From: Gemmatimonadota bacterium
GTDB lineage: Bacteria; 4572-55; J002
Assembly: GCA_003697105.1 (NCBI GenBank)
Contig: RFFQ01000131.1
Location: 1 to 62,309 of the forward strand
Reading direction: 5' to 3'
Length of the DNA: 62,309 nt
This document shows, one piece after another, positions 22,898 to 62,163 of the stretch (position 1 is its first letter; each line of letters begins with the position of its first letter). A model generated the notes under the pieces. The model saw only the letters and a program-made list of their open reading frames with translations, did no database searches and was not told where the DNA came from. Both the position numbers and the translations under genes were made by a program.

Positions 22898-25036
22898 TTA
22901 GTATGCCCAATCCAGCCCTACGGTCACCCGAAAGCGCTCTTGAGGCAATTCCGGTGATCCGGATCGACTGGTGGTTTTGATGTCTGCCCATTGGGTATCA
23001 AACAGGTTATCGATTCTTAGATTTGCTCCGATCTGGTGCCAAATATTTTCGGCACGAAAATAAAAATTAGCAATGAACACGTCATCCATTTTGCCATCGG
23101 GATAAAGTACATTACCCGTGTTCGTTTTTCGGTCGAGCAAGCCAAAACCTTGCACATCCAGATAGTACCGTTCCCGGAACTTGGCGCTCACACCGAAAGT
23201 TGTCTTGATATGGGATAAAAAGACCAAATCAGCTTTTTCGGCAGCATCATTGGCTTTGGTATATCCATCCAGATACGCGAAGGTCGCGTAAGCATCCCAA
23301 TTCTGACCTAACGCAAATTTTGCCAGTACTTCAGTGCCATAATATTGGGCACTGCCTACGTTCTGATATTGCCGGACATTCACGGTATCCGTTCCGGAAA
23401 TGTATTTATCACCGGTGTTCACAAAAACAATATTGTTTTCCACTTGGGTGATAAAACCTCGTGCCTCAAAGGTGGTACGGGATAACGGTTGGAAATTCAA
23501 GACCACCTCGTAATTGTCGTAGGTTTGGGGGTCTAAGTTGGTATTGGGGATTTGGTAGCGACTGCCCGGAACGTATGTCGTACGGAACATGGTGTTGGGG
23601 GCTGGGGTAAAATAGGCACTACCATAAATCAGGCGGGCACTAAACCTCGGTAGTATTTTCGCGTAAATGCTGGCACGCGGGTTGACCGTCCAGCCAAAGG
23701 TAGTGAAGTAATCGACACGAGTGCCCAAATTGAGTTTAATCCGGTTTTCAAAATGACTGGTTTCCAGTTGCAGAAACCCTCCCCCGTTACGAATTTGATA
23801 ATAGGTGAGTGCCTCATTATTACTAATGGGGTCGCCTAAAATTTCAATGCCCTCTTCATTGTATTCCGATTTATAATCTTTGGGAACCGTTCCCAGATTT
23901 TGGGCTTCCAAGCCCATCAGAACCAGCGTGTTTTCGCTAGGTGCGTAGCTGAGTTCTTCGACAAAGTGAATGCGATCCCCACTTTCGCGATAATGTTTAG
24001 ATGTATTGTAGCGGGGAGACGCGGGGTCTGCATCCGAGGTATAATAAAAATTATAGCGATTTTGGTAATAATGATACGATAACCGGGTCGTTAAGCTGAT
24101 CTGGTTACTAAATGGAAATTTATTCTCTACATAGACGAGTAATTCGTCATTGGAGGTACCGGCATGTTCGTTAGCCGCGAAGTTTGCCGGGTCAAGTCGC
24201 AAACCACCTTTACTATCCCGCGTCCAGACATTTAACCCCAGCGTATTGTTTTCCGCTTGAATTTTGCTCGAAAAACTATAGCTGGTGAGCGGGTTGGTGT
24301 ATTCCGGTTTGTAAGCATCGGCCACACCGGGGGGATAGATCAATTCATTGGTGTATTGGTCATTCAAATAGTCCCACCAATCGCGATCATCATCATTTTG
24401 GTGGTAGGCGGAAAAGGCGAAATTGATTGCCAAATCATTGATGTGCCGTTGTCCGAAAACTTGTGTCCCGATGGTTTCCTGAGAGCCACCAAACATCGAT
24501 ATTTGGTACATGTTCAGGCTGTTGATCGGACTTTTGGTGATAATATTGATGATCCCCGCCGCGGCATCTGCCCCGTAAAGTGCCGAACTGGGACCCATCA
24601 ACACTTCGATCCGTTCCACATGTTTCAGGGGATACGCATAACCGAAATGCGGGTCTTCTGATGTCGCCGGATTGGCACGAATTCCATCGATTAGCAAGAT
24701 AAAGTTATCCAGACCCCGTAACTCTGCTTGAAGGTAGTACTGGGGACCACCCGCCACATGGAGCTCCATTCCGGGGATAAAACGCAATACTTCACTTAAA
24801 AAGCGGTAACCATGCTGTTGAATTTCATCGTAGGTGATGACAAAAACAGATGCCGGGGTTTCACTAAGCTTTTGCATCCGTTTGGAAGCGGTGCTAACCA
24901 ACTCGTCTGTAAAGAACATATCTTCGGTCATCAATAATTCATCGTCAAGGTTTCCCCATTCCTCTTGTGCTTCACCAGCGACAACCAGCAAAGCCATTAA
25001 GATCATACCAACCAAAATGGTCTGTTTTGTAATCAT
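22898..25036 (-). CDS. TonB-dependent outer membrane receptor
   Basis: STASKRMQKL..TPAS, LLIDG, VERIEVLMGPSSALYGADA..GIINIITK, DNLFD and an aromatic C-terminus. Start at ATG 25036. Confidence 0.9.
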   Translation of the reverse strand: MITKQTILVGMILMALLVVAGEAQEEWGNLDDELLMTEDMFFTDELVSTASKRMQKLSETPASVFVITYDEIQQHGYRFLSEVLRFIPGMELHVAGGPQYYLQAELRGLDNFILLIDGIRANPATSEDPHFGYAYPLKHVERIEVLMGPSSALYGADAAAGIINIITKSPINSLNMYQISMFGGSQETIGTQVFGQRHINDLAINFAFSAYHQNDDDRDWWDYLNDQYTNELIYPPGVADAYKPEYTNPLTSYSFSSKIQAENNTLGLNVWTRDSKGGLRLDPANFAANEHAGTSNDELLVYVENKFPFSNQISLTTRLSYHYYQNRYNFYYTSDADPASPRYNTSKHYRESGDRIHFVEELSYAPSENTLVLMGLEAQNLGTVPKDYKSEYNEEGIEILGDPISNNEALTYYQIRNGGGFLQLETSHFENRIKLNLGTRVDYFTTFGWTVNPRASIYAKILPRFSARLIYGSAYFTPAPNTMFRTTYVPGSRYQIPNTNLDPQTYDNYEVVLNFQPLSRTTFEARGFITQVENNIVFVNTGDKYISGTDTVNVRQYQNVGSAQYYGTEVLAKFALGQNWDAYATFAYLDGYTKANDAAEKADLVFLSHIKTTFGVSAKFRERYYLDVQGFGLLDRKTNTGNVLYPDGKMDDVFIANFYFRAENIWHQIGANLRIDNLFDTQWADIKTTSRSGSPELPQERFRVTVGLDWAY

Positions 25037-25218
25037 GCGACCCCCTATAGCATTATGGTGTGAAATGAAGGCATTTCTTCCGGCATTCGCGGTCTCTCCG
25101 TACTTGTGCCCGTCTTGAATGCGCTTAAACCTGAATAACATAAAAAAAGAAAAATGTCAATCCATTTTATCAGATGGATAGCACCGGGTTGCCGTGCTAC
25201 CCGGATTCAATAAAAAGC

Positions 25219-25247: not shown

Positions 25248-25347
25248 ACAAGTCTATCTAAACGAAAGACATGAAATTCAATCTGAATAGACGCCCTTTT
25301 GGTTTGCCAGAGGCACTATTTTTCATTTTAGAAGTTAGGTGATATTT

Positions 25348-26433
25348 ATGACGACGCGCTTTTCAGAAGTGAGAGTCGATCCGGTACCATGGCTTTTGGA
25401 GAATGCCGGACCGGTCATCCGGTATCGGACACTGGTTGATATTTTGGAAAAACCGCTGGATGACCCAGAAGTCCAGAAAGCCCGTCAGGCGATCTTAAAA
25501 ACGAAACATGCCAAGGAAGTCTTGGATAATATTGGTGATGATGGGAGTTGGTTCGGCCGGTTGGTGGAAGGGAGTTCGCATAACGGTGCATGTACGGAGA
25601 CGATGTTTCCCCGAATGTTGGAATTGGGATTTCTGCCCGGTGATGAGGTGGTGGAACGTGCCGCAACATTCCAGTGGCATCTTTTGGAACAGGGTATGGA
25701 AGCAGATACCAAAGAATTTAACCATCATGACCAACAAACCTACGCCTATAAGCACATCACATTTTTACCGGCATCGTATTTAGCCCGAATTGGGTATCAG
25801 GATGACCCCCGGGTAACCGAAGTGTTTGATAAGCTACATGCGGGATTGGTAGAATTTTTCGAGAATGATTTGCAACATAATTTATGGGAACGAAAAAAAA
25901 ATGTCCTGCTGATTAAAGAAGATAGCCTCTGGTTGCACGATTCCTTTATCCTACCAGATTTATACTACTTGGAAACCTTTGCCTACCATCCCACGCTGAA
26001 AACCACCCCCAAATGGAAACCCATTTTCAAAAAATGTATGGAGTGGTGGCTGGAAGGTGGTCGTCCACAAGGTTTAGGCTCGTTTGTGTGGGAACGAACG
26101 AATATTGTGCATGGGAATAACGTCAATTTTCATACGTTAGAGGTGGCGCAATCCTACCAAATGACCCGCCATTACTTGATCAAAATGGAACAAGCCCTGC
26201 GGACAGGCTTTGCCGCCGAGTTTGATTATTTCCAGACGGAAATCTTAAAGCTCGCCGCTTTACAACATCCGGAAGGGTTTTGGGAATTGAATGGGATGAC
26301 CAATAGCCCGCAACAACTGGAATATCAATATATCCCATTGGAAGATAAGTGGAAAGGCTCTGCCCGAGAAGTGGATGTGACCTTTCGGGTCGTGCAGATT
26401 CTGAAGCACTTTGAACGCTCGATCACCGCTTGA
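25348..26433 (+). CDS. Hypothetical protein, probable (alpha/alpha)-toroid / prenyltransferase-repeat-like fold
   Basis: PVPWLLE..P.IRYRTL.D.L, DDGSW, LQHPEGFW and C-terminal TFRV..IL patterns. Alternative GTG at 25339. Confidence 0.55.
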   Translation: MTTRFSEVRVDPVPWLLENAGPVIRYRTLVDILEKPLDDPEVQKARQAILKTKHAKEVLDNIGDDGSWFGRLVEGSSHNGACTETMFPRMLELGFLPGDEVVERAATFQWHLLEQGMEADTKEFNHHDQQTYAYKHITFLPASYLARIGYQDDPRVTEVFDKLHAGLVEFFENDLQHNLWERKKNVLLIKEDSLWLHDSFILPDLYYLETFAYHPTLKTTPKWKPIFKKCMEWWLEGGRPQGLGSFVWERTNIVHGNNVNFHTLEVAQSYQMTRHYLIKMEQALRTGFAAEFDYFQTEILKLAALQHPEGFWELNGMTNSPQQLEYQYIPLEDKWKGSAREVDVTFRVVQILKHFERSITA

Positions 26434-27905
26434 TTTGTCACGAAATGGATCTTTCGACGCTTCGTCAGCAAAACATCCATATCGTGGGGGCAACCAGTGC
26501 CGAAGGTAGCGCCATTTTGGATTTTTTACTCGATCACGGCTGTGAATGCCTTACCGCGCACGATGTCTGTGCTCCGCGTGAAATCCATCGCCATTACCGC
26601 CTGACCCACCTCACACAACCGGTTAAAGCGGTCAATGCAACTATCCGGCGATGGAAATCTGCAGTTACGCTCTGTCATGCGGATGATTATCTGAAGGGAA
26701 TCGAACATGCAGACCTGATTTTTGTGACGCAGGCATGGTTCAAATATCCACCGAATTTCCCGAAATTACCCGAAGTGCGGCAACAAGGTATCCCTTTTCG
26801 AACGATTACCCAACTCTATTTTGAATTGTTTCCCGGCACCATCATCGGCATTACCGGTACCAACGGTAAATCCACGACCACGGCTCTGGTCGCCCAGATA
26901 CTGGAACAGGAAGCCCGTCTTACCGGGACGTTTCGGGTATTGCATAGTGGTAACGAGCGCCATGTTTCCCAAGTACTGGATCAGTTGGAGCACTGCTCAC
27001 CAGCAGATGTACTGGTCTTGGAAATCAGTAACCGGCAATTGATCGAACTGGATCGCGCTCCCCATATTGCCACCATCACCAACATCACTCCCGATCATCT
27101 GGATGACCACCCCTCGTTTGCGGATTATGTCCAGATCAAGACCAAGATGTTCCGCCTGCAAACCCCAGATGATGTGGCAATTTTGAATCGAGACCATGAA
27201 TTGACCCGACAAATACAATCCGTGGTAACTGCCAAACGGGTGTTGACGTACAGTTTTAAGGGCGATCCCGCCGCAGAAGCGATATATCGGGATGACCACT
27301 TGTGGTGGCGCCAACCGGATGGCGACTTTCAACCGATCTGTCACCGCTCGGAATTCCCGTTGCGAGGTAATCATAATATTGAAAATGCACTGGCGGCAAT
27401 ATTGACGACAAAAGCGTTTGGTGCTCGGTCGGAAGCGATTCAGTCGGCATTGCAATCCTTTCGAGGATTGCCCTATCGCACGGAAGTGGTCGCTACATTG
27501 GATGGAGTGGAATACATCAATGATGTGAAAAGTACCACACCTGCCGCCACGATTGCGGCACTTCAATCCCTCTCCCAACCCGTTATTTTGATTGCCGGCG
27601 GAGGAGGTAAAGGGGATTTAGATTATCAGCCCTTAGCACATCAGATTTCCCAACACGTTAAAGCACTTATTTTGCTGTCAGGTGAGGGTGCTACTGCCAT
27701 TGCGGCGGCTATGGCAGGTCTTGATACCCCGCTGTATTACCAACAGACGCTAGAACAAGCCATTTTGCAGGCAAAAACCTTGGCTGTGGCGGGTGATGTG
27801 GTACTTCTCTCACCAGCATGTCCTTATTTTTCCAGCACTTTTGGTGCATCACCCCGCGGCGGTTTCACCCAACTGATCGAGGAGTTACAACAAAACCATG
27901 CATGA
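26430..27905 (+). CDS. murD: MurD-like ATP-dependent amino acid ligase (divergent)
   Basis: GITGTNGKSTT, VLEIS, NITPDHLD.H, HNIEN, GLPYRTE, YIND.K.T, LIAGG and LLSPAC. Confidence 0.75.
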   Translation: MICHEMDLSTLRQQNIHIVGATSAEGSAILDFLLDHGCECLTAHDVCAPREIHRHYRLTHLTQPVKAVNATIRRWKSAVTLCHADDYLKGIEHADLIFVTQAWFKYPPNFPKLPEVRQQGIPFRTITQLYFELFPGTIIGITGTNGKSTTTALVAQILEQEARLTGTFRVLHSGNERHVSQVLDQLEHCSPADVLVLEISNRQLIELDRAPHIATITNITPDHLDDHPSFADYVQIKTKMFRLQTPDDVAILNRDHELTRQIQSVVTAKRVLTYSFKGDPAAEAIYRDDHLWWRQPDGDFQPICHRSEFPLRGNHNIENALAAILTTKAFGARSEAIQSALQSFRGLPYRTEVVATLDGVEYINDVKSTTPAATIAALQSLSQPVILIAGGGGKGDLDYQPLAHQISQHVKALILLSGEGATAIAAAMAGLDTPLYYQQTLEQAILQAKTLAVAGDVVLLSPACPYFSSTFGASPRGGFTQLIEELQQNHA

Positions 27906-28065
27906 ATTTTTAACAGCACGTTGCCCGCTATGTGGGGCGGAAATCGAAATTCCACAAGATACGGATTTTGGCGAACTTTATGAGTGTGACGTATGTGGTG
28001 CTGAAGTTGAAGTGGTTGAACTAGACCCCCTAGAACTCCAACCGGTGACTGAAATTGAAAAATGA
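27898..28065 (+). CDS. LysW-like zinc-ribbon small protein (55 aa, absent from the ORF track)
   Basis: MHEFLTARCPLCGAEIEIPQDTDFGELYECDVCGAEVEVVELDPLELQPVTEIEK. GAGGAG upstream. Overlaps the MurD-like stop and the next start (ATGA). Confidence 0.85.
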   Translation: MHEFLTARCPLCGAEIEIPQDTDFGELYECDVCGAEVEVVELDPLELQPVTEIEK

Positions 28066-29150
28066 GGGATTCTTCTCCCACTCCGGAACTGCCGCACGTG
28101 GCAAGTTGCCATACGGTATGGCGGTATGCGCCATTGTACCGAAAACCTCCGGCTTCAAACTATCACTTAACATTAGCAGAAGGAAATACGCCGTGTCTGG
28201 AAATGCCGTTACTGGCGGATCGGCTAGGTTTAACGGCTTTATTTTTTAAACGTGAAGACCTGAATCCAACCGGCTCGCATAAAGATCGTAGTTTGGCGTT
28301 TCAGGTATCGACCTATTGGGAGCAAGGCTGTTCCCGTTTGCTAATTTCATCCAGTGGAAATGCGGGTGTTTCGGCTTCGGCGTATGCCGCACTGGCAGGG
28401 ATTTCCATGTATGTGTTTGTCTCTCCCCAAACGCCCCGTCACAAACTGGAACGGATTCACCGCTATGGTGGTCACATAATTGCATCGTCGAGAGCGATCA
28501 GCTTTGCCAAGCATATTTCCCGGCAATTGGAGATTCCAAATCTTCGTCCATCGACCAATCCACGCTCTATTGAGGGTTTTCAGTCGATTGGATGGGAACT
28601 TTTTGAACAATTGGGCACCGTAGATTCTATTTTTACGTATGTCAGTAGCGCCAGTTCGTTAATCGGGATCGGGCGTGCATTTCAACGCTTAAAAGATGAG
28701 TTTCATCTACTGGAGAGCGTGCCGCAGCTACATGCGGTCCAATCCGGTTTGGGAACCAGCATTGCCGCCCATTTTGTACCCCAAAAGCAAGATTTACCGA
28801 TGCAGCGGAGTGTGGTCGGTGATTTAGGGGCAAAAAAAACAGCATTAGCCGATGAGGCGATCCGGTTGATTACGGCTACCGGCGGGTCGGGGTGGATTGT
28901 CTCCGATGCCGATATTTTAGCCGCCCGCCACGTGTTGGGGAGGCAATACGGGATTGAAACTTCCAGCGAAGGGTGCGCGGCTTTTGCCGCCCTACAACAC
29001 GCGAGCCAAACACGCCAGTTAGGGCGTGTGGTGGTCCTCCTCACCGGACATGGTTCGCAATGGGAGATGACCTCCCCAGAACTGGATCAATTACCCGTTT
29101 TAAATACGTTTTCCGAAATTGCCACTTATATTGAACGCCACCCCGCCTAG
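28062..29150 (+). CDS. PLP-dependent fold-type II enzyme, threonine-synthase-like (divergent)
   Basis: LAEGNTP, KREDLNPTGSHKDR, SSSGNAG and LLTGHG. Confidence 0.85.
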   Translation: MRDSSPTPELPHVASCHTVWRYAPLYRKPPASNYHLTLAEGNTPCLEMPLLADRLGLTALFFKREDLNPTGSHKDRSLAFQVSTYWEQGCSRLLISSSGNAGVSASAYAALAGISMYVFVSPQTPRHKLERIHRYGGHIIASSRAISFAKHISRQLEIPNLRPSTNPRSIEGFQSIGWELFEQLGTVDSIFTYVSSASSLIGIGRAFQRLKDEFHLLESVPQLHAVQSGLGTSIAAHFVPQKQDLPMQRSVVGDLGAKKTALADEAIRLITATGGSGWIVSDADILAARHVLGRQYGIETSSEGCAAFAALQHASQTRQLGRVVVLLTGHGSQWEMTSPELDQLPVLNTFSEIATYIERHPA

Positions 29151-29162
29151 AATGTGATCTGT

Positions 29163-30089: not shown

Positions 30090-32132
30090 ATGCAGTATCG
30101 TTTCAAGGACATTCCCATGCGGATCAAATTATTGCTCGCGTTTGGGATGATCGTGTTACTGCCAGTACTGATTGTAACTTGGTTTGCCATCGGTCAGATT
30201 ACCAGCAAAATTGAAGATAGCCTCCAAAATCGGGTCAATGAATCTCTCGATGTCGCCCTCAACGCGTACACGCAATTTCGGGATCGGGCGTTGGAAAACG
30301 CCAAAATTCTGGCAGAGTTGCGTACCCTCCAAAATTATATCAATCATTATGATACGGAAGCAATGAATCTTATCCAATTGGTGGAAATTAAACGCGACCA
30401 GTTTGATGCGATTACCCTCGAAATCGCCGATGCAAGAGGGGATATTCTCTATCGGAGTTACGAAGCTATTCCGGACCGGCGCGAGTATTTATATGACTCC
30501 CAAGACCCAACGATTTTGCGTGCCATACAATATTCAGAAGGCATCTCGGTGCGAGCCTCCGAACATGGGATTTCGGTCAAAGGGGTGGTACCGGTACGAA
30601 CATATGCAGACCCGTTTGGTGTGATTTTGTTGGGGTATCTGCTGGATGATACCTTTGCCGACCAAATTCACCAAATTACAGGCACGGATGTCGGCATTCG
30701 GATTTATCTCAACTCGCGGGTGATCGCCGCAGCATTTGCCGCTACGGCAGCAGGGAGCCGGGAACAGATTCTTAAAGAGGTAAAATCACAAGCGGCACGA
30801 CCTGAAATTACCCAACATGTTATTAAAGACGGTATTCGGAATTGGAGTTACCGCGAAACCATTCGAGGAAATGAATATCAAACAGCTTTTGCCCCTATCA
30901 GCGGTGATAATGGCGAGATTATCGGCATGATTTCCGTGGCGATTCAACGCGATAATATTGATGCCATCAAACGCCTGTCAGCGATATTCTTATTTGTCGC
31001 CGCCATTGTGGCGTTGATTCTTGCCACACTCACTGCCTTTTTTATCTCGCGAGAAATTACAGTCCCGCTCCAACGCTTTGTGGAAGGCTCCCGCGCCATC
31101 TCCGCCGGAGATTTTACCCAACGGATCAACCTCCATTCCCGCGATGAAATTGGGGTTCTGGCAAACACTTTCAACCAGATGACCCAAGATTTATTTGACC
31201 AACGAGAACAATTGCGGAAGGCAAATCAACAATTGACCGAGTATGCCGCCCAATTAGAACAAACCAATTTAGAATTGACGGCCGCCAAACAACGCATCGA
31301 ACGGTGGAATGAAGAATTAGAACAAACCGTTAAAGAACGTACCGAACAGTTAGAAATTTCCAACCGCGAATTGAAAAAACTGCATGAAATGCGCACCGAA
31401 TTTTTAAACATGGCAACCCATGAACTGCGCACCCCCATTACCGCGATTAAAGGATATTCCGATTTTATGCTGATGGGAATGATGGGCGAAATTAACGATA
31501 AACAGCGCAAAGCCATTTCTGCCATCCGCGAAAGTGGAGAACGGCAACTCGCCCTCATCAACGATATGCTAGACCTCGCTAAAATTGAGGCAGGGCGAAT
31601 CCAACTGGAAGTCGAACCGACGCCCCTGTGGGTGATCGCCGCCAATAATCTGCACATGATCCGCCCCTTAGCAGAAGAAAAGGGCATTACGCTGGAAAAC
31701 CAAATCCCCCGTGATTTTCCAGACGTTTATGTGGATAAAGATAAACTAACACAGGTGTTTACCAACTTGCTCAGCAATGCCATCAAATATACGGATGATG
31801 GGGGGCGAGTGACCATCACCGCCAGTGTTATTTCGGAAGAGCATGTGCAAGTTTCTGTCTCGGATACGGGTGTCGGTATCCCACCGGAAGATTTACCGAA
31901 AGTGTTTGAAAAGTTTACCAAAATTTCCAACCAACCCACCCGCAATGAAAAAGGCACCGGTTTGGGTCTGCCGATTGTCAAATTGATCGTAGAGGCACAC
32001 GGGGGCGAAATTTGGGTTGAAAGTGAACTCAACAAAGGAACATCCTTCTCTTTTACCATTCCTATCTTTCAATATGAAGCGCAATTGAAAGAACAAGCCC
32101 AACGTATCGAACGATCATTAACTTCCACATGA
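30090..32132 (+). CDS. Sensor histidine kinase (Cache-like periplasmic domain, HAMP, HisKA, HATPase)
   Basis: Two TMs, DEIG.LA..FN.M, THELRTP, NLLSNAIKY, DTGVGI and GTGLGL. Confidence 0.92.
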   Translation: MQYRFKDIPMRIKLLLAFGMIVLLPVLIVTWFAIGQITSKIEDSLQNRVNESLDVALNAYTQFRDRALENAKILAELRTLQNYINHYDTEAMNLIQLVEIKRDQFDAITLEIADARGDILYRSYEAIPDRREYLYDSQDPTILRAIQYSEGISVRASEHGISVKGVVPVRTYADPFGVILLGYLLDDTFADQIHQITGTDVGIRIYLNSRVIAAAFAATAAGSREQILKEVKSQAARPEITQHVIKDGIRNWSYRETIRGNEYQTAFAPISGDNGEIIGMISVAIQRDNIDAIKRLSAIFLFVAAIVALILATLTAFFISREITVPLQRFVEGSRAISAGDFTQRINLHSRDEIGVLANTFNQMTQDLFDQREQLRKANQQLTEYAAQLEQTNLELTAAKQRIERWNEELEQTVKERTEQLEISNRELKKLHEMRTEFLNMATHELRTPITAIKGYSDFMLMGMMGEINDKQRKAISAIRESGERQLALINDMLDLAKIEAGRIQLEVEPTPLWVIAANNLHMIRPLAEEKGITLENQIPRDFPDVYVDKDKLTQVFTNLLSNAIKYTDDGGRVTITASVISEEHVQVSVSDTGVGIPPEDLPKVFEKFTKISNQPTRNEKGTGLGLPIVKLIVEAHGGEIWVESELNKGTSFSFTIPIFQYEAQLKEQAQRIERSLTST

Positions 32133-59797: not shown

Positions 59798-61048
59798 GTG
59801 CCGGTTCATCATCTTCTAAAAGTTTTTGAAAGCCGCAAAATGGCGGCGTTACTCCTGCTGGGTTTTTCTTCCGGCTTGCCCTTACTCCTCACCAACAAAA
59901 CTGTGCAAGCCTGGATGACATTTGAAGGGGTTGATTTGGGCACGGTGGGGCTGTTTAGCCTTGTCGGATTGCCATACTCTCTCAAATTCATCTGGGCACC
60001 CCTGCTAGACCGGTATGTTCCCCCCTTTTTAGGACGTCGGCGCGGCTGGCTGGCAATCACCCAAGTGGGGTTGATGATAGCCCTCGCCACGATGGCGCTC
60101 CATGACCCAACGGTTGCCTTACAAATGCTGGCACTCAACACGGTGATTATCGCGTTTCTGAGTGCCTCGCAAGACATCGCTGTGGATGCCTACCGTACCG
60201 ATGTGTTGGAAGAACGGGAGATGGGCGCCGGAGTTTCGGTCTGGGTGCTGGGCTATCGCGTGGGGATGCTTATCGCCGGGTCTCTCACCTTTGTCATGGC
60301 AAAATATATGTCGTGGCAGATGGTCTATCTCGCTATGTCCGGTTTGATGTTGATTGGCTTGACCACCTCGTTCTGGTCACCTGCCCCCCAAACGGAAAAT
60401 CAAACTCCGACTTCTCTCTTTGATTCTGTTATCTTTCCCTTTATTGATTTTTTTCGCCGCCTGAATGTGACCCGTGCCAGCCTGATTTTACTGTTTATCA
60501 TCCTATACAAATTGGGCGACGGTATTTTGGGCAATATGGCGACACCCTTTTTGATCAAAACCGGTTTTGATGAGATCGACATTGGCTTGATGCAAGGTGT
60601 GGTCGGGCTTCTCGCAACCATGATTGGTGTAGTCGCCGGTGGCGTGATTCTCAGCCGGATCGGCATCAACCGTTCCATGTGGGTGTTTGGGGGGTTGCAG
60701 GCGGTCAGTAACCTGATGTACCTGATCTTGGCAATTGTTGGTAAAAATGATGTAGTAGCGGTGCTGGCGATCAGTGTGGAAAATTTTTGTGCGGGCTTGG
60801 TGACTTCCGGCTTTGTCGCTTATCTGATGAGCCTATGTAACCCTAAATTTTCTGCAACACAATTTGCTTTGCTAACCAGTTTAATGGCAGTTAGCCGGGA
60901 TATTCTGGTTGCACCGGCGGGTAAGATGGCAGAAGCGACCGGCTGGATTTGGTTTTTTTTGATCAGTATCTTGTTGGCGTTGCCCGGCTTATTGTTGTTA
61001 CCGGTTGCCGCCCCTTGGAATGCCCCCGCTGAACAGGTTGAATCATGA
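59798..61048 (+). CDS. ampG: AmpG muropeptide MFS transporter
   Basis: LGFSSGLP, PYSLKFIWAPLLD, GRRRGW, SASQDIAVDAYR and SATQFALLTS. Confidence 0.93.
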   Translation: MPVHHLLKVFESRKMAALLLLGFSSGLPLLLTNKTVQAWMTFEGVDLGTVGLFSLVGLPYSLKFIWAPLLDRYVPPFLGRRRGWLAITQVGLMIALATMALHDPTVALQMLALNTVIIAFLSASQDIAVDAYRTDVLEEREMGAGVSVWVLGYRVGMLIAGSLTFVMAKYMSWQMVYLAMSGLMLIGLTTSFWSPAPQTENQTPTSLFDSVIFPFIDFFRRLNVTRASLILLFIILYKLGDGILGNMATPFLIKTGFDEIDIGLMQGVVGLLATMIGVVAGGVILSRIGINRSMWVFGGLQAVSNLMYLILAIVGKNDVVAVLAISVENFCAGLVTSGFVAYLMSLCNPKFSATQFALLTSLMAVSRDILVAPAGKMAEATGWIWFFLISILLALPGLLLLPVAAPWNAPAEQVES

Positions 61049-62163
61049 TGAATCACCTCCGCTGCCGCACCTGCGGCCAAACCTACAACCCGAATGAGCC
61101 GGTCTGGAGATGTACCTGCGGCGGTCTGCTGGATTTGCACTTTCAGGCAGAATTTCCACTAGACCGGATTCAAGCTCGCCCGCCGGATTTGTGGCGCTAC
61201 CGCGAAGCACTCCCATTGGAGTCCGATGACCACATCATTATCATTGCGCTGGGAGAAGGATTTACCCCGCTATTACCAGTGTGGATCGGTGATAAATCGA
61301 TCTGGATCAAGCAAGAACACCTCTTTCCCACCGGATCGTACAAGGATCGCGGGGCGGCGATGTTGATCAGCAAAAGCGCGGAATTGGGTATCTCACGCGT
61401 GGTGGAGGATTCCTCCGGCAATGCGGGGTGTGCTGTGGCGGCGTACTGTGCCCGCGCCGGTATGGAATGCGATATTTACGTTCCAGCGGATACGTCCGCC
61501 GCTAAACTCGCTCAAATTCAGATGTACGGTGCCACGTTGCACAAAATAGCCGGTTCCCGGGAGGATACCGCTCGAGCCGTGCTGATGGCGGCAGAACAGT
61601 ACTATTATGCCAGCCACTCGTGGAATCCGTTTTTCTTTCACGGTACCAAAACGTTTGCCTATGAAGTCTGCGAACAATTGGGCTGGACTGCCCCGGATAC
61701 AATTATCTTACCGGTGGGCAATGGCACCCTGTTACTGGGGGTTGACATCGGTATGAGCGAGCTACGGAACGCCGGAATCATCCCCCAAAAACCAAAATTG
61801 ATCGCAGTACAAGCGGCACATTGTTCTCCCTTGGCACAACGGTTTTTTAAACCAGATTCCGAGATCACGTCCCCCCAACCCACCATTGCTGAAGGGATTG
61901 CTATCGCGGAACCAATCCGGGGGGAACAAATCCTTGACGCCGTGCGTAATAGTGGCGGTACGTTCATCACCGTTAGCGAGGACGAGATCAAAACCGCCTT
62001 GATCCAGATGGGAACACAAGGGTTTTATATTGAACCCACAGCTGCCGCGACCATTGCCGGTATCCAGCGCTATCTCGCAACAGCCCCCCCAGATGAGGTG
62101 ATCGTGTCCGTTTTTACCGGACATGGGCTTAAAGCCACTGAAAAAATACTAAAATTCCTATAA
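61045..62163 (+). CDS. thrC: Threonine synthase
   Basis: N-terminal C..CG...C.CGG, LGEGFTP, PTGSYKDRG, DSSGNAG, PVGNG and EPT. Confidence 0.85.
   Translation: MMNHLRCRTCGQTYNPNEPVWRCTCGGLLDLHFQAEFPLDRIQARPPDLWRYREALPLESDDHIIIIALGEGFTPLLPVWIGDKSIWIKQEHLFPTGSYKDRGAAMLISKSAELGISRVVEDSSGNAGCAVAAYCARAGMECDIYVPADTSAAKLAQIQMYGATLHKIAGSREDTARAVLMAAEQYYYASHSWNPFFFHGTKTFAYEVCEQLGWTAPDTIILPVGNGTLLLGVDIGMSELRNAGIIPQKPKLIAVQAAHCSPLAQRFFKPDSEITSPQPTIAEGIAIAEPIRGEQILDAVRNSGGTFITVSEDEIKTALIQMGTQGFYIEPTAAATIAGIQRYLATAPPDEVIVSVFTGHGLKATEKILKFL

Follow-up and report, generated by a model that had tools for sequence, protein, structure and literature searches.

A conserved five-gene module with its own MurD and a LysW-like zinc ribbon appears to stand in for glutamate racemase

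The stretch of DNA considered here, 62,309 nucleotides from a Gemmatimonadota bacterium (GenBank assembly GCA_003697105.1, contig RFFQ01000131.1) and called the window at its full length throughout, carries three overlapping genes at positions 26445-29150. They encode a MurD-type ligase, a small zinc-ribbon protein of the LysW fold, and a pyridoxal phosphate (PLP)-dependent enzyme related to threonine synthase. In many other bacteria these genes are accompanied by two more, for an ATP-grasp ligase and an NlpC/P60-type amidase. The resulting five-protein module appears to replace glutamate racemase (MurI) together with ordinary MurD, and to deliver D-glutamate (D-Glu) to position 2 of the peptidoglycan stem peptide. 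Substitution for MurI in D-Glu supply is considered quite probable, and a covalent mechanism of the general load-modify-unload kind, in which a carrier protein supplies D-Glu to MurD, is given a probability of about one half. Peptidoglycan almost universally has D-Glu at position 2, and the module may represent an undescribed way for many uncultured bacteria to place this residue in the cell wall. A literature search that covered few subscription journals returned no description of the five-gene set.

The three open reading frames (ORFs) lie on the plus strand at 26430-27905 (491 amino acids, TTG start), 27898-28065 (55 amino acids, ATG start), and 28062-29150 (362 amino acids, ATG start). Neighboring frames share 8 and then 4 nucleotides, in agreement with the end-to-start overlap noticed in an earlier, sequence-only reading of this DNA. 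An ATG at 26445 within the first frame yields an N-terminus that matches those of homologues, and this codon is more likely to be the true start than the TTG at 26430. The apparent overlap with an ORF further upstream (25339-26433) is therefore probably not real. With this correction, the trio consists of a module-type MurD, or UDP-MurNAc-L-Ala--glutamate ligase, at 26445-27905 (matched by TIGR01087, Mur_ligase_M, and Mur_ligase_C), an acidic LysW-fold zinc ribbon ending in TEIEK at 27898-28065 (PF21344), which is the proposed carrier, and a fold-type II PLP enzyme at 28062-29150 (PALP, PF00291), which is the proposed epimerase or racemase.

The same neighborhood recurs widely. A search among 8000 scored database candidates found 239 relatives of the PLP protein at E <= 0.001, and a scan of one genome per species gave 517 stretches with a PLP relative, the best 80 of which, together with locus L012, make up the 81 loci examined. 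Gene counts in these loci come from targeted BLAST and hidden Markov model (HMM) searches, since all-against-all clustering of ORFs was blurred by spurious high-GC frames. A module-type murD is located upstream of the PLP gene on the same strand in 58 of the 81 loci, and the small zinc-ribbon gene is detected in 61 by BLAST and in 70 when an HMM built from 50 members is used. Where the PLP locus is without the small gene, that gene is found elsewhere in the genome in five of five cases, and in two genomes (G042 and G043) it immediately follows murD. In 69 loci there is an ATP-grasp gene, which as a rule immediately follows the PLP gene; of the 12 loci without one, 7 stop less than 350 bases past the PLP gene. 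NlpC/P60 genes are found in 47 loci, and a divergent NlpC/P60-like family with a GIDCSGF motif occurs in 18 further loci; because the two families do not overlap, an amidase of this type is encoded in 65 of the 81.

Judging by record titles, the loci belong to Anaerolineae and other Chloroflexota, many Patescibacteria lineages, Dormibacterota, Myxococcota, Armatimonadota, Acidobacteriota, and others. The PLP family is present even in Patescibacteria genomes of about 1 Mb, and the module genes of this phylum are found in the interval from mraY to ftsW/murG, where murD normally resides. An arrangement that recurs in this way across many phyla is far beyond chance, and as judged from gene order the trio is a conserved functional unit. 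Two genomes contain the module twice, with the copies on separate contigs (G049, loci L034 and L039; G081, loci L067 and L074).

All five parts of the module are present in the Gemmatimonadota genome itself (G000; 199 contigs, 96.85% complete, with the window as contig C7). Its ATP-grasp gene is located at C132:848-2221, and the best match of the encoded protein is the ATP-grasp protein of locus L028 (34% identity, E 5e-93); the PLP gene of the same locus is among the two most similar to that of the window. The amidase gene is located at C73:3005-3919, and its best full-length matches are module amidases. The sequence-only reading had seen no lysX, lysY, lysZ, lysJ, or lysK gene in the window. 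For ligases of the RimK type this holds: contig C7 has no PF08443 match to indicate a RimK/LysX-type ligase (LysZ, LysY, LysJ, and LysK were not individually searched for), and the five PF08443 matches of the genome are all on other contigs. An ATP-grasp partner nevertheless exists on C132 and a release-type amidase on C73, and both kinds of gene usually adjoin the trio in other genomes.

Properties of these two partners give hints regarding their roles. The predicted structure of the ATP-grasp protein (predicted local distance difference test 93.6, predicted template-modeling score 0.93) is nearest to PurK, PurT, biotin carboxylase, and L-amino-acid ligase, with template-modeling (TM) scores of 0.55-0.62. 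In enzymes of these kinds, a small acid is activated and an amine is provided by a larger partner. The protein matches ATP-grasp_3 and, weakly, 'PRK06524', and is not of the RimK/LysX type; assignment as the ligase Ddl was rejected, as there is no Dala_Dala_lig match. The amidase combines an NlpC/P60 domain with an SH3_16 domain, the latter found in dipeptidyl-peptidase VI/YkfC-type enzymes, and it matches Bacillus cereus 3h41 and MepS. Enzymes of the YkfC type cut gamma-D-Glu-Lys or gamma-D-Glu-diaminopimelate bonds. They share with the module amidase an N-terminal SH3_16 domain and the lack of an evident signal peptide, a feature that holds for the C73 gene product and suggests that the module amidase is cytoplasmic. 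Unlike YkfC-type genes, which reside in a muropeptide catabolic operon, the module gene lies beside murD.

The distribution of the module is complementary to that of murI. No match to the murI model TIGR00067 was found anywhere in the Gemmatimonadota genome, and the Asp/Glu racemase fold of MurI is in none of the three window proteins. Among 50 module genomes, murI exceeds the cut-off in none, with only three weak matches below it, and among the 40 nearest available relatives of the window genome it is present in 27. These 27 include both relatives from the same class (G001 and G002), which encode a canonical MurD alongside MurI and are without a PLP orthologue or the small protein. The relative G024, whose contig C60 holds the small gene together with genes for the module MurD, the PLP enzyme, and the ATP-grasp protein, is without murI. 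A PLP match in another relative (G017, 32% identity) was rejected as an orthologue; the small protein is missing there, and MurD is of the canonical kind. Larger, even samples of two phyla give the same result. In a sample of 151 Chloroflexota genomes, where PLP orthologues score 362.9-452.8 bits and the next best match 206 bits, murI is found in 0 of 4 module genomes compared to 97 of 147 others. In a sample of 121 Patescibacteria, the corresponding figures are 0 of 14 and 43 of 107 (E <= 1e-20; 34 over the cut-off). The Chloroflexota counts for murI and the PLP gene include the unpublished genome G116, and those for the 50 and 40 module genomes include the unpublished G086 and G089; the conclusions do not depend on these three.

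Other known sources of D-Glu were also sought in the Gemmatimonadota genome. A search for a D-amino-acid transaminase returned a single class-IV aminotransferase, which is IlvE (387.9 bits), and a search with a query from beside the MurD2 gene of Rhodanobacter, for which there was no positive control, found no MurL-like gene. The sequence-only reading had proposed that the module makes a non-standard amino acid. Complementarity with murI points instead to an ordinary supply of D-Glu, and an unusual residue at position 2 in its place retains a small share of the probability.

A second line of evidence is provided by the ligase. The window protein scores 113.5 bits with Mur_ligase_M and 51.8 bits with Mur_ligase_C (Pfam), and 264.4 bits with the NCBIfam murD model TIGR01087, for which the cut-off is 211.95. 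However, TIGR01087 aligns to it only over profile positions 75-422 of 441, and thus not over the full length of the N-terminal UDP-binding domain. This gene had been taken for an extra MurD paralogue lying outside a dcw cluster that would hold a canonical murD. A TIGR01087 search of the whole genome reveals no other match over the cut-off, so the window gene is the only MurD of this bacterium, just as the Patescibacteria copies occupy the usual murD position. Furthermore, the genes for MurC (contig C61, 559.9 bits), Mpl (C43, 464.4 bits), MurF (C76, adjoining alr, 445.9 bits), and MurE (C101, 593.9 bits) are scattered; a classical dcw cluster outside of which the window murD could lie therefore does not exist.

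The module MurDs are set apart both in their alignments and in their phylogeny. Matches at E <= 1e-40 were obtained in 32 of 40 module genomes, and all 34 of these matches begin at profile positions 34-97; a canonical full-length MurD match was found in none of the 40. The canonical MurDs of the 40 relatives extend from profile positions 1-3 to 438-441 and score 304-467 bits. A late start on the profile occurs in this set only in the window genome (75) and in G024 (78), and the latter, as the sole relative of the 40 to share a module-type MurD, also carries the module. In a quick maximum-likelihood tree of 55 module MurDs, 30 canonical MurDs, and one MurD2, made with no rows dropped and no bootstrap, all 55 module proteins fall on one side of a branch with a support of 100 by the Shimodaira-Hasegawa-like approximate likelihood ratio test (SH-aLRT). 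The MurD2, from Rhodanobacter, falls on the canonical side on a long branch.

Changes are also evident at the site for glutamate. Four residues of E. coli MurD, D182, K348, A414, and L416, lie next to D-Glu according to a study of MurD2 (PMC8788868). The equivalent of D182 is Asn in 48 and Asp in 7 of the 55 module MurDs, and the K348 position is variable (18 Asn, 14 Ser, 9 Lys, 6 Ala, 5 Gln). The A414 position holds Pro in 32 and Ala in 18, and that of L416 holds Phe in 51. The window protein has Asp, Lys, Pro, and Phe at these four positions, such that the E. coli loop A414-S415-L416 becomes P-Y-F. On the strength of the tree and these substitutions, the module protein is to be viewed as a third MurD type, in a clade apart and with an apparently remodeled glutamate site.

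A close parallel is the alternative peptidoglycan pathway of Xanthomonas, in which MurD2 and MurL operate where MurI and D-amino-acid transaminase are missing, and a variant MurD is encoded beside genes that establish the D-center (PMC8788868). The A414/L416 loop of MurD2 is Pro/Phe, as in the module MurD. Other features differ. MurL is a single protein unrelated to the module partners (its Rhodanobacter homologue has a GGGKDS motif), and MurD2 groups with canonical MurDs, as judged from one sequence. The MurD2 stereo-determinants Glu197 and Arg358 are not found in the module MurD, where Asp or Asn occupies the first position and the second is variable. A module that only produced free D-Glu would need no MurD of its own. 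The co-variation of MurD with the module is thus the chief reason to suspect that MurD is mechanistically coupled to the other module proteins, in the way that MurD2 is to MurL. In one Saccharibacteria genome, MurD and PLP matches occupy a single open frame of 703 amino acids (L073:4458-6566), in which the MurD profile is matched only to position 337; fusion, deletion, or an assembly fault are each possible.

The small protein matches the LysW zinc-ribbon family PF21344 (55.8 bits, cut-off 27), and its gene at 27898-28065 is the only one of the genome to do so. Its scores with lysW model TIGR01206 (52.6, just below the cut-off of 53.2) and with NF041070 (48.4, below the cut-off of 75) are insufficient for assignment to either. 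The four zinc-binding cysteines (C9, C12, C30, and C33) do not vary among 50 homologues, and the protein is strongly acidic, with a pI of 4.05 and 15 Asp and Glu residues compared to 2 Lys and Arg. The likeness to a LysW-type carrier had been correctly recognized. The protein had also been described as tail-less, which is true to the extent that the EDWGE terminus of LysW is missing. Yet the family retains another, near-invariant terminus. The window protein ends in EIEK, and 59 of 60 family members from the loci end in Glu-Lys, mostly as EEEK or DEEK, the remaining one ending in EEKG. Tails in the 70 loci detected by HMM are EEK (67), QEK (1), AEK (1), and EKG (1). Among the 120 best of 598 database matches, 112 end in EK and 5 are true LysW proteins ending in EEDWGE. 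Because of this Glu-Lys tail, the invariant cysteines, and the strong acidity, the small protein is best regarded as a sister family of LysW with its own conserved, presumably reactive end.

Several sources nevertheless name Patescibacteria members of this family 'lysine biosynthesis protein LysW'. If the PF21344 match and these names were taken at face value, the protein would be the LysW of the alpha-aminoadipate route to lysine or arginine, and its gene neighbors would be incidental. This annotation is already contradicted, as far as sequence can tell, by the tail and the gene context: in addition to the model scores, the divergent terminus, and the lack of a RimK/LysX-type gene on the window contig, the gene remains associated with those for MurD, the PLP enzyme, and the ATP-grasp protein in phylum after phylum, Patescibacteria included. 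An ordinary LysW function is thus highly improbable.

The PLP enzyme belongs to the PALP family (178.5 bits) and had been read as a non-canonical paralogue of threonine synthase. This view is upheld, since every threonine-synthase model scores below its cut-off (best 142.8 compared to 303; TIGR00260 65.7 compared to 167.1). The protein atlas offered only 'threonine synthase family' clusters. Lys74 in a GSHKDR motif and an SSSGN loop are invariant in 44 homologues, and an NLRPS motif is conserved in the family. The closest solved structures are threonine synthases (6cgq, 2zsj, 2d1f, and 1uim, at about 140-149 bits), followed among the Protein Data Bank (PDB) matches by dehydratases and serine/aspartate racemases. 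The fold and the PLP-lysine motif are those of threonine synthase, whereas the gene resides in cell-wall gene clusters and the phosphate-binding positions are lost: compared to 6cgq and 2zsj, GNT is changed to GNA, and the Arg of PYR-LEG is unconserved. We take these Thr and Arg residues to be the positions that hold the phosphate of O-phosphohomoserine, the threonine synthase substrate. By these sequence features, the enzyme is related to threonine synthase but is not one. A complex prediction for the PLP enzyme with the small protein, with an alignment of its own for each, gave a score of 0.01 and a mark of 0.32, figures that speak neither for nor against binding. In six Patescibacteria genomes (G260, G301, G346, G277, G325, and G290), PLP-profile matches contain one or two in-frame stops, mostly TAA with one TGA, which could reflect a match that runs past the gene end, a broken gene, or another genetic code.

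A pathway that would accommodate these observations can be proposed. The ATP-grasp enzyme would use ATP to join a carboxyl group of L-Glu, most plausibly the gamma-carboxyl, to the epsilon-amine of the C-terminal Lys of the carrier, leaving the alpha-amine of the tethered Glu free. The PLP enzyme would then form an aldimine with this amine and invert the configuration at C-alpha. Next, the module MurD would ligate UDP-MurNAc-L-Ala onto the tethered D-Glu, after which the NlpC/P60 amidase would cut the gamma-D-Glu-Lys bond. As a variant, the amidase might free D-Glu first and MurD might use the free amino acid. Since PLP chemistry needs a free alpha-amine, a substrate on the carrier must hang by a carboxyl group, and this would account for the terminal Lys of the carrier in place of the Glu of LysW. 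For the same reason, inversion must precede ligation by MurD, rather than follow it as with MurD2 and MurL. This specific version, in essence a LysW of reversed polarity or 'carboxyl-group carrier protein' served by a PLP enzyme derived from threonine synthase, is put forward tentatively, and we consider it less likely to be correct in all its details than to be wrong in some.

Several known systems provide precedents for parts of this scheme. LysW and its relatives, the amino-group carrier proteins (AmCPs) of Thermus, Sulfolobus, and Streptomyces, are likewise small acidic PF21344 zinc ribbons with a flexible, conserved C-terminal tail, and with partners such as LysX and LysK they follow the same logic of loading by an ATP-grasp ligase, modification by an enzyme, and unloading by a hydrolase. 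In LysW, the gamma-carboxyl of the terminal Glu of EDWGE takes the amine of the substrate, and the terminal Glu-Glu-Lys of the module carrier suggests that tethering occurs via the carboxyl of the substrate rather than its amine. The partners differ in kind: the ATP-grasp enzyme is similar to PurK, PurT, and biotin carboxylase rather than RimK/LysX, modification falls to a fold-type II PLP enzyme and hydrolysis to an NlpC/P60-type cysteine amidase instead of a metallohydrolase, and the genes are linked to murD and the dcw cluster rather than to lysine and arginine genes.

Carboxyl tethering of Glu is known from butirosin biosynthesis (BtrI/BtrJ/BtrK/BtrG), where an ATP-grasp enzyme loads the gamma-carboxyl of L-Glu on a carrier, a PLP enzyme acts on the alpha-center of the tethered Glu, and a dedicated enzyme cuts the gamma-glutamyl link. 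That pathway differs from the module in using a phosphopantetheinyl acyl carrier protein, a thioester link, and a PLP decarboxylase, and in making an antibiotic side chain. Similarly, in the CysO-CysM-Mec+ system of Mycobacterium and in pairs of sulfur carriers with ThrC-like proteins, an enzyme of the PALP fold acts on or with the C-terminal end of a small carrier protein, and the amino acid is then set free by a protease. The carrier in that case is a ubiquitin-like protein with a Gly-Gly thiocarboxylate, the reaction is a beta-replacement, and there is no Mur ligase.

A number of observations weigh against a carrier-based supply of D-Glu. Covalent loading, the substrate and its attachment point, the stereochemistry, the order of steps, and indeed all chemistry of the module are inferred from genes. 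Among solved structures, the PLP enzyme is nearest to threonine synthases rather than to racemases, and we know of no glutamate racemase of fold type II. Also, murI is absent from 50 of 147 Chloroflexota and 64 of 107 Patescibacteria without the module, and the murI counts cover related genomes rather than independent samples and include metagenome-assembled genomes (MAGs), which are incomplete. Only three of the five genes are in the window, and five loci are without an ATP-grasp gene despite at least 5.3 kb of downstream sequence. No fusion of the zinc ribbon to a module enzyme was found, four longer proteins carrying PF21344 alone, and this is weak evidence. Finally, in 55 of 70 loci the small gene is encoded on the other strand from murD and the PLP gene, and it is therefore usually not co-transcribed with them; in addition, the window MurD retains the Asp and Lys equivalent to D182 and K348, such that it might bind free D-Glu.

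Some of these same points would favor a simpler arrangement, in which the PLP enzyme, as a soluble glutamate racemase of fold type II, supplies MurD with free D-Glu, the zinc ribbon is a non-covalent subunit, scaffold, or regulator, and the ATP-grasp and NlpC/P60 proteins do other cell-wall work, such as a ligase step or muropeptide recycling. Complementarity with murI also fits this alternative, as do the usual strand of the small gene and the Asp and Lys kept by the window MurD. In addition, the SSSGN loop has a Ser directly before the Gly, which we take to be the motif as in serine and aspartate racemases, and racemases of the same fold are among the PDB matches (5ybw and 3l6b). A free-substrate racemase leaves unexplained, however, why the separate MurD clade always accompanies the set and canonical MurD never does, why the LysW-fold protein has a near-invariant C-terminal Glu-Lys, and why the ATP-grasp and amidase genes are so regularly associated (69 and 65 of the 81 loci). 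It is judged unlikely. Another possibility is that a non-standard amino acid arises from beta- or gamma-replacement by the PLP enzyme, perhaps on the Lys amine of the carrier, and that MurD places this product at position 2 or on the small protein, giving an unusual peptidoglycan without D-Glu. The nearest relative of the PLP enzyme, threonine synthase, is a gamma-elimination/beta-addition enzyme, SbnA-type and CysM-type enzymes are weaker relatives, the glutamate site of MurD appears remodeled, and absence of murI is expected too if D-Glu is unused. Against this stand the loss of the phosphate-holding residues of threonine synthase, the lack of any conserved oxidoreductase or other tailoring gene in the loci, and the normal MurC, MurE, and MurF of this genome, given that MurE needs a gamma-carboxyl at position 2. 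Moreover, D-Glu at this position is described as strictly conserved in bacteria in one source (PMC5885031). This alternative is regarded as improbable. The original proposal of a carrier-protein pathway is supported in outline, with a conserved unit and a LysW-like carrier at its core, although it has had to be revised as regards the carrier terminus, the existence of an ATP-grasp partner, the standing of MurD in the genome, and the likely product.

If carrier-based supply is correct, it would address a recognizable gap. Many uncultured bacteria have Mur ligases and no recognizable source of D-Glu. Work from 2024 by Penalver and colleagues reportedly characterizes a MurI homologue of one Saccharibacteria species and remarks that most genomes of the Candidate Phyla Radiation (CPR) are without D-Glu and D-Ala racemases. 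Few routes to D-Glu are known, and they comprise MurI, D-amino-acid transaminase, a bifunctional DapF (PMC5885031), and MurD2/MurL (PMC8788868). To the question of the missing source, the module gives a concrete and directly testable answer, as its five conserved genes exclude murI and include a dedicated murD. If true, the carrier principle of LysW would be extended from amino-acid biosynthesis to the synthesis of cell-wall precursors, the widespread annotations 'LysW' and 'threonine synthase' would be corrected for these families, and a pathway-specific set of targets would become available that is absent from hosts and from most cultured bacteria. The carboxyl-carrier version, in particular, would amount to an ATP-driven, one-way route to the D-center of peptidoglycan, used in place of MurI in much of the CPR, in Dormibacterota, and in part of the Chloroflexota.

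Additional observations concern the arrangement of the small gene and its surroundings. Where this gene is on the opposite strand (for example L058:5790-5942 and L102:5774-5947), it sits between murD and the PLP gene with tens of bases to spare, convergent with the former and divergent from the latter. The co-directional, overlapping small gene of the window is the minority arrangement. The ORF at 25339-26433, directly upstream of murD, encodes 364 amino acids and was rejected as a member of the module, since no Pfam or NCBIfam family matches it and none of the 81 loci encodes a homologue. A XerD gene (TIGR02225, 367 bits) begins at 29154, right after the PLP gene. Reading of the sequence suggests a TonB-dependent receptor-like ORF on the minus strand at 22898-25141, and the translation of the ORF at 30090-32132 (680 amino acids) resembles a sensor histidine kinase; neither these two nor XerD is conserved near the module. 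At the far end of the window, a second threonine-synthase-like PALP gene (61045-62163), whose best ThrC model score is 281.7 compared to a cut-off of 303, overlaps by 4 bases the end of a gene for an AmpG muropeptide permease (59798-61048; TIGR00901, 485.4 bits). The association of a ThrC-like gene with a transporter for muropeptides could be meaningful or fortuitous. With regard to alanine racemase, chimeric Alr/MurF-like proteins are the topic of a 2026 paper (PMC13726279). In the present genome, the alr gene next to murF (G000:C76:37283-39211, corresponding to L010:9284-11212, minus strand) encodes 642 amino acids, of which the Alr model accounts only for residues 8-373, leaving about 270 C-terminal residues that it does not explain.

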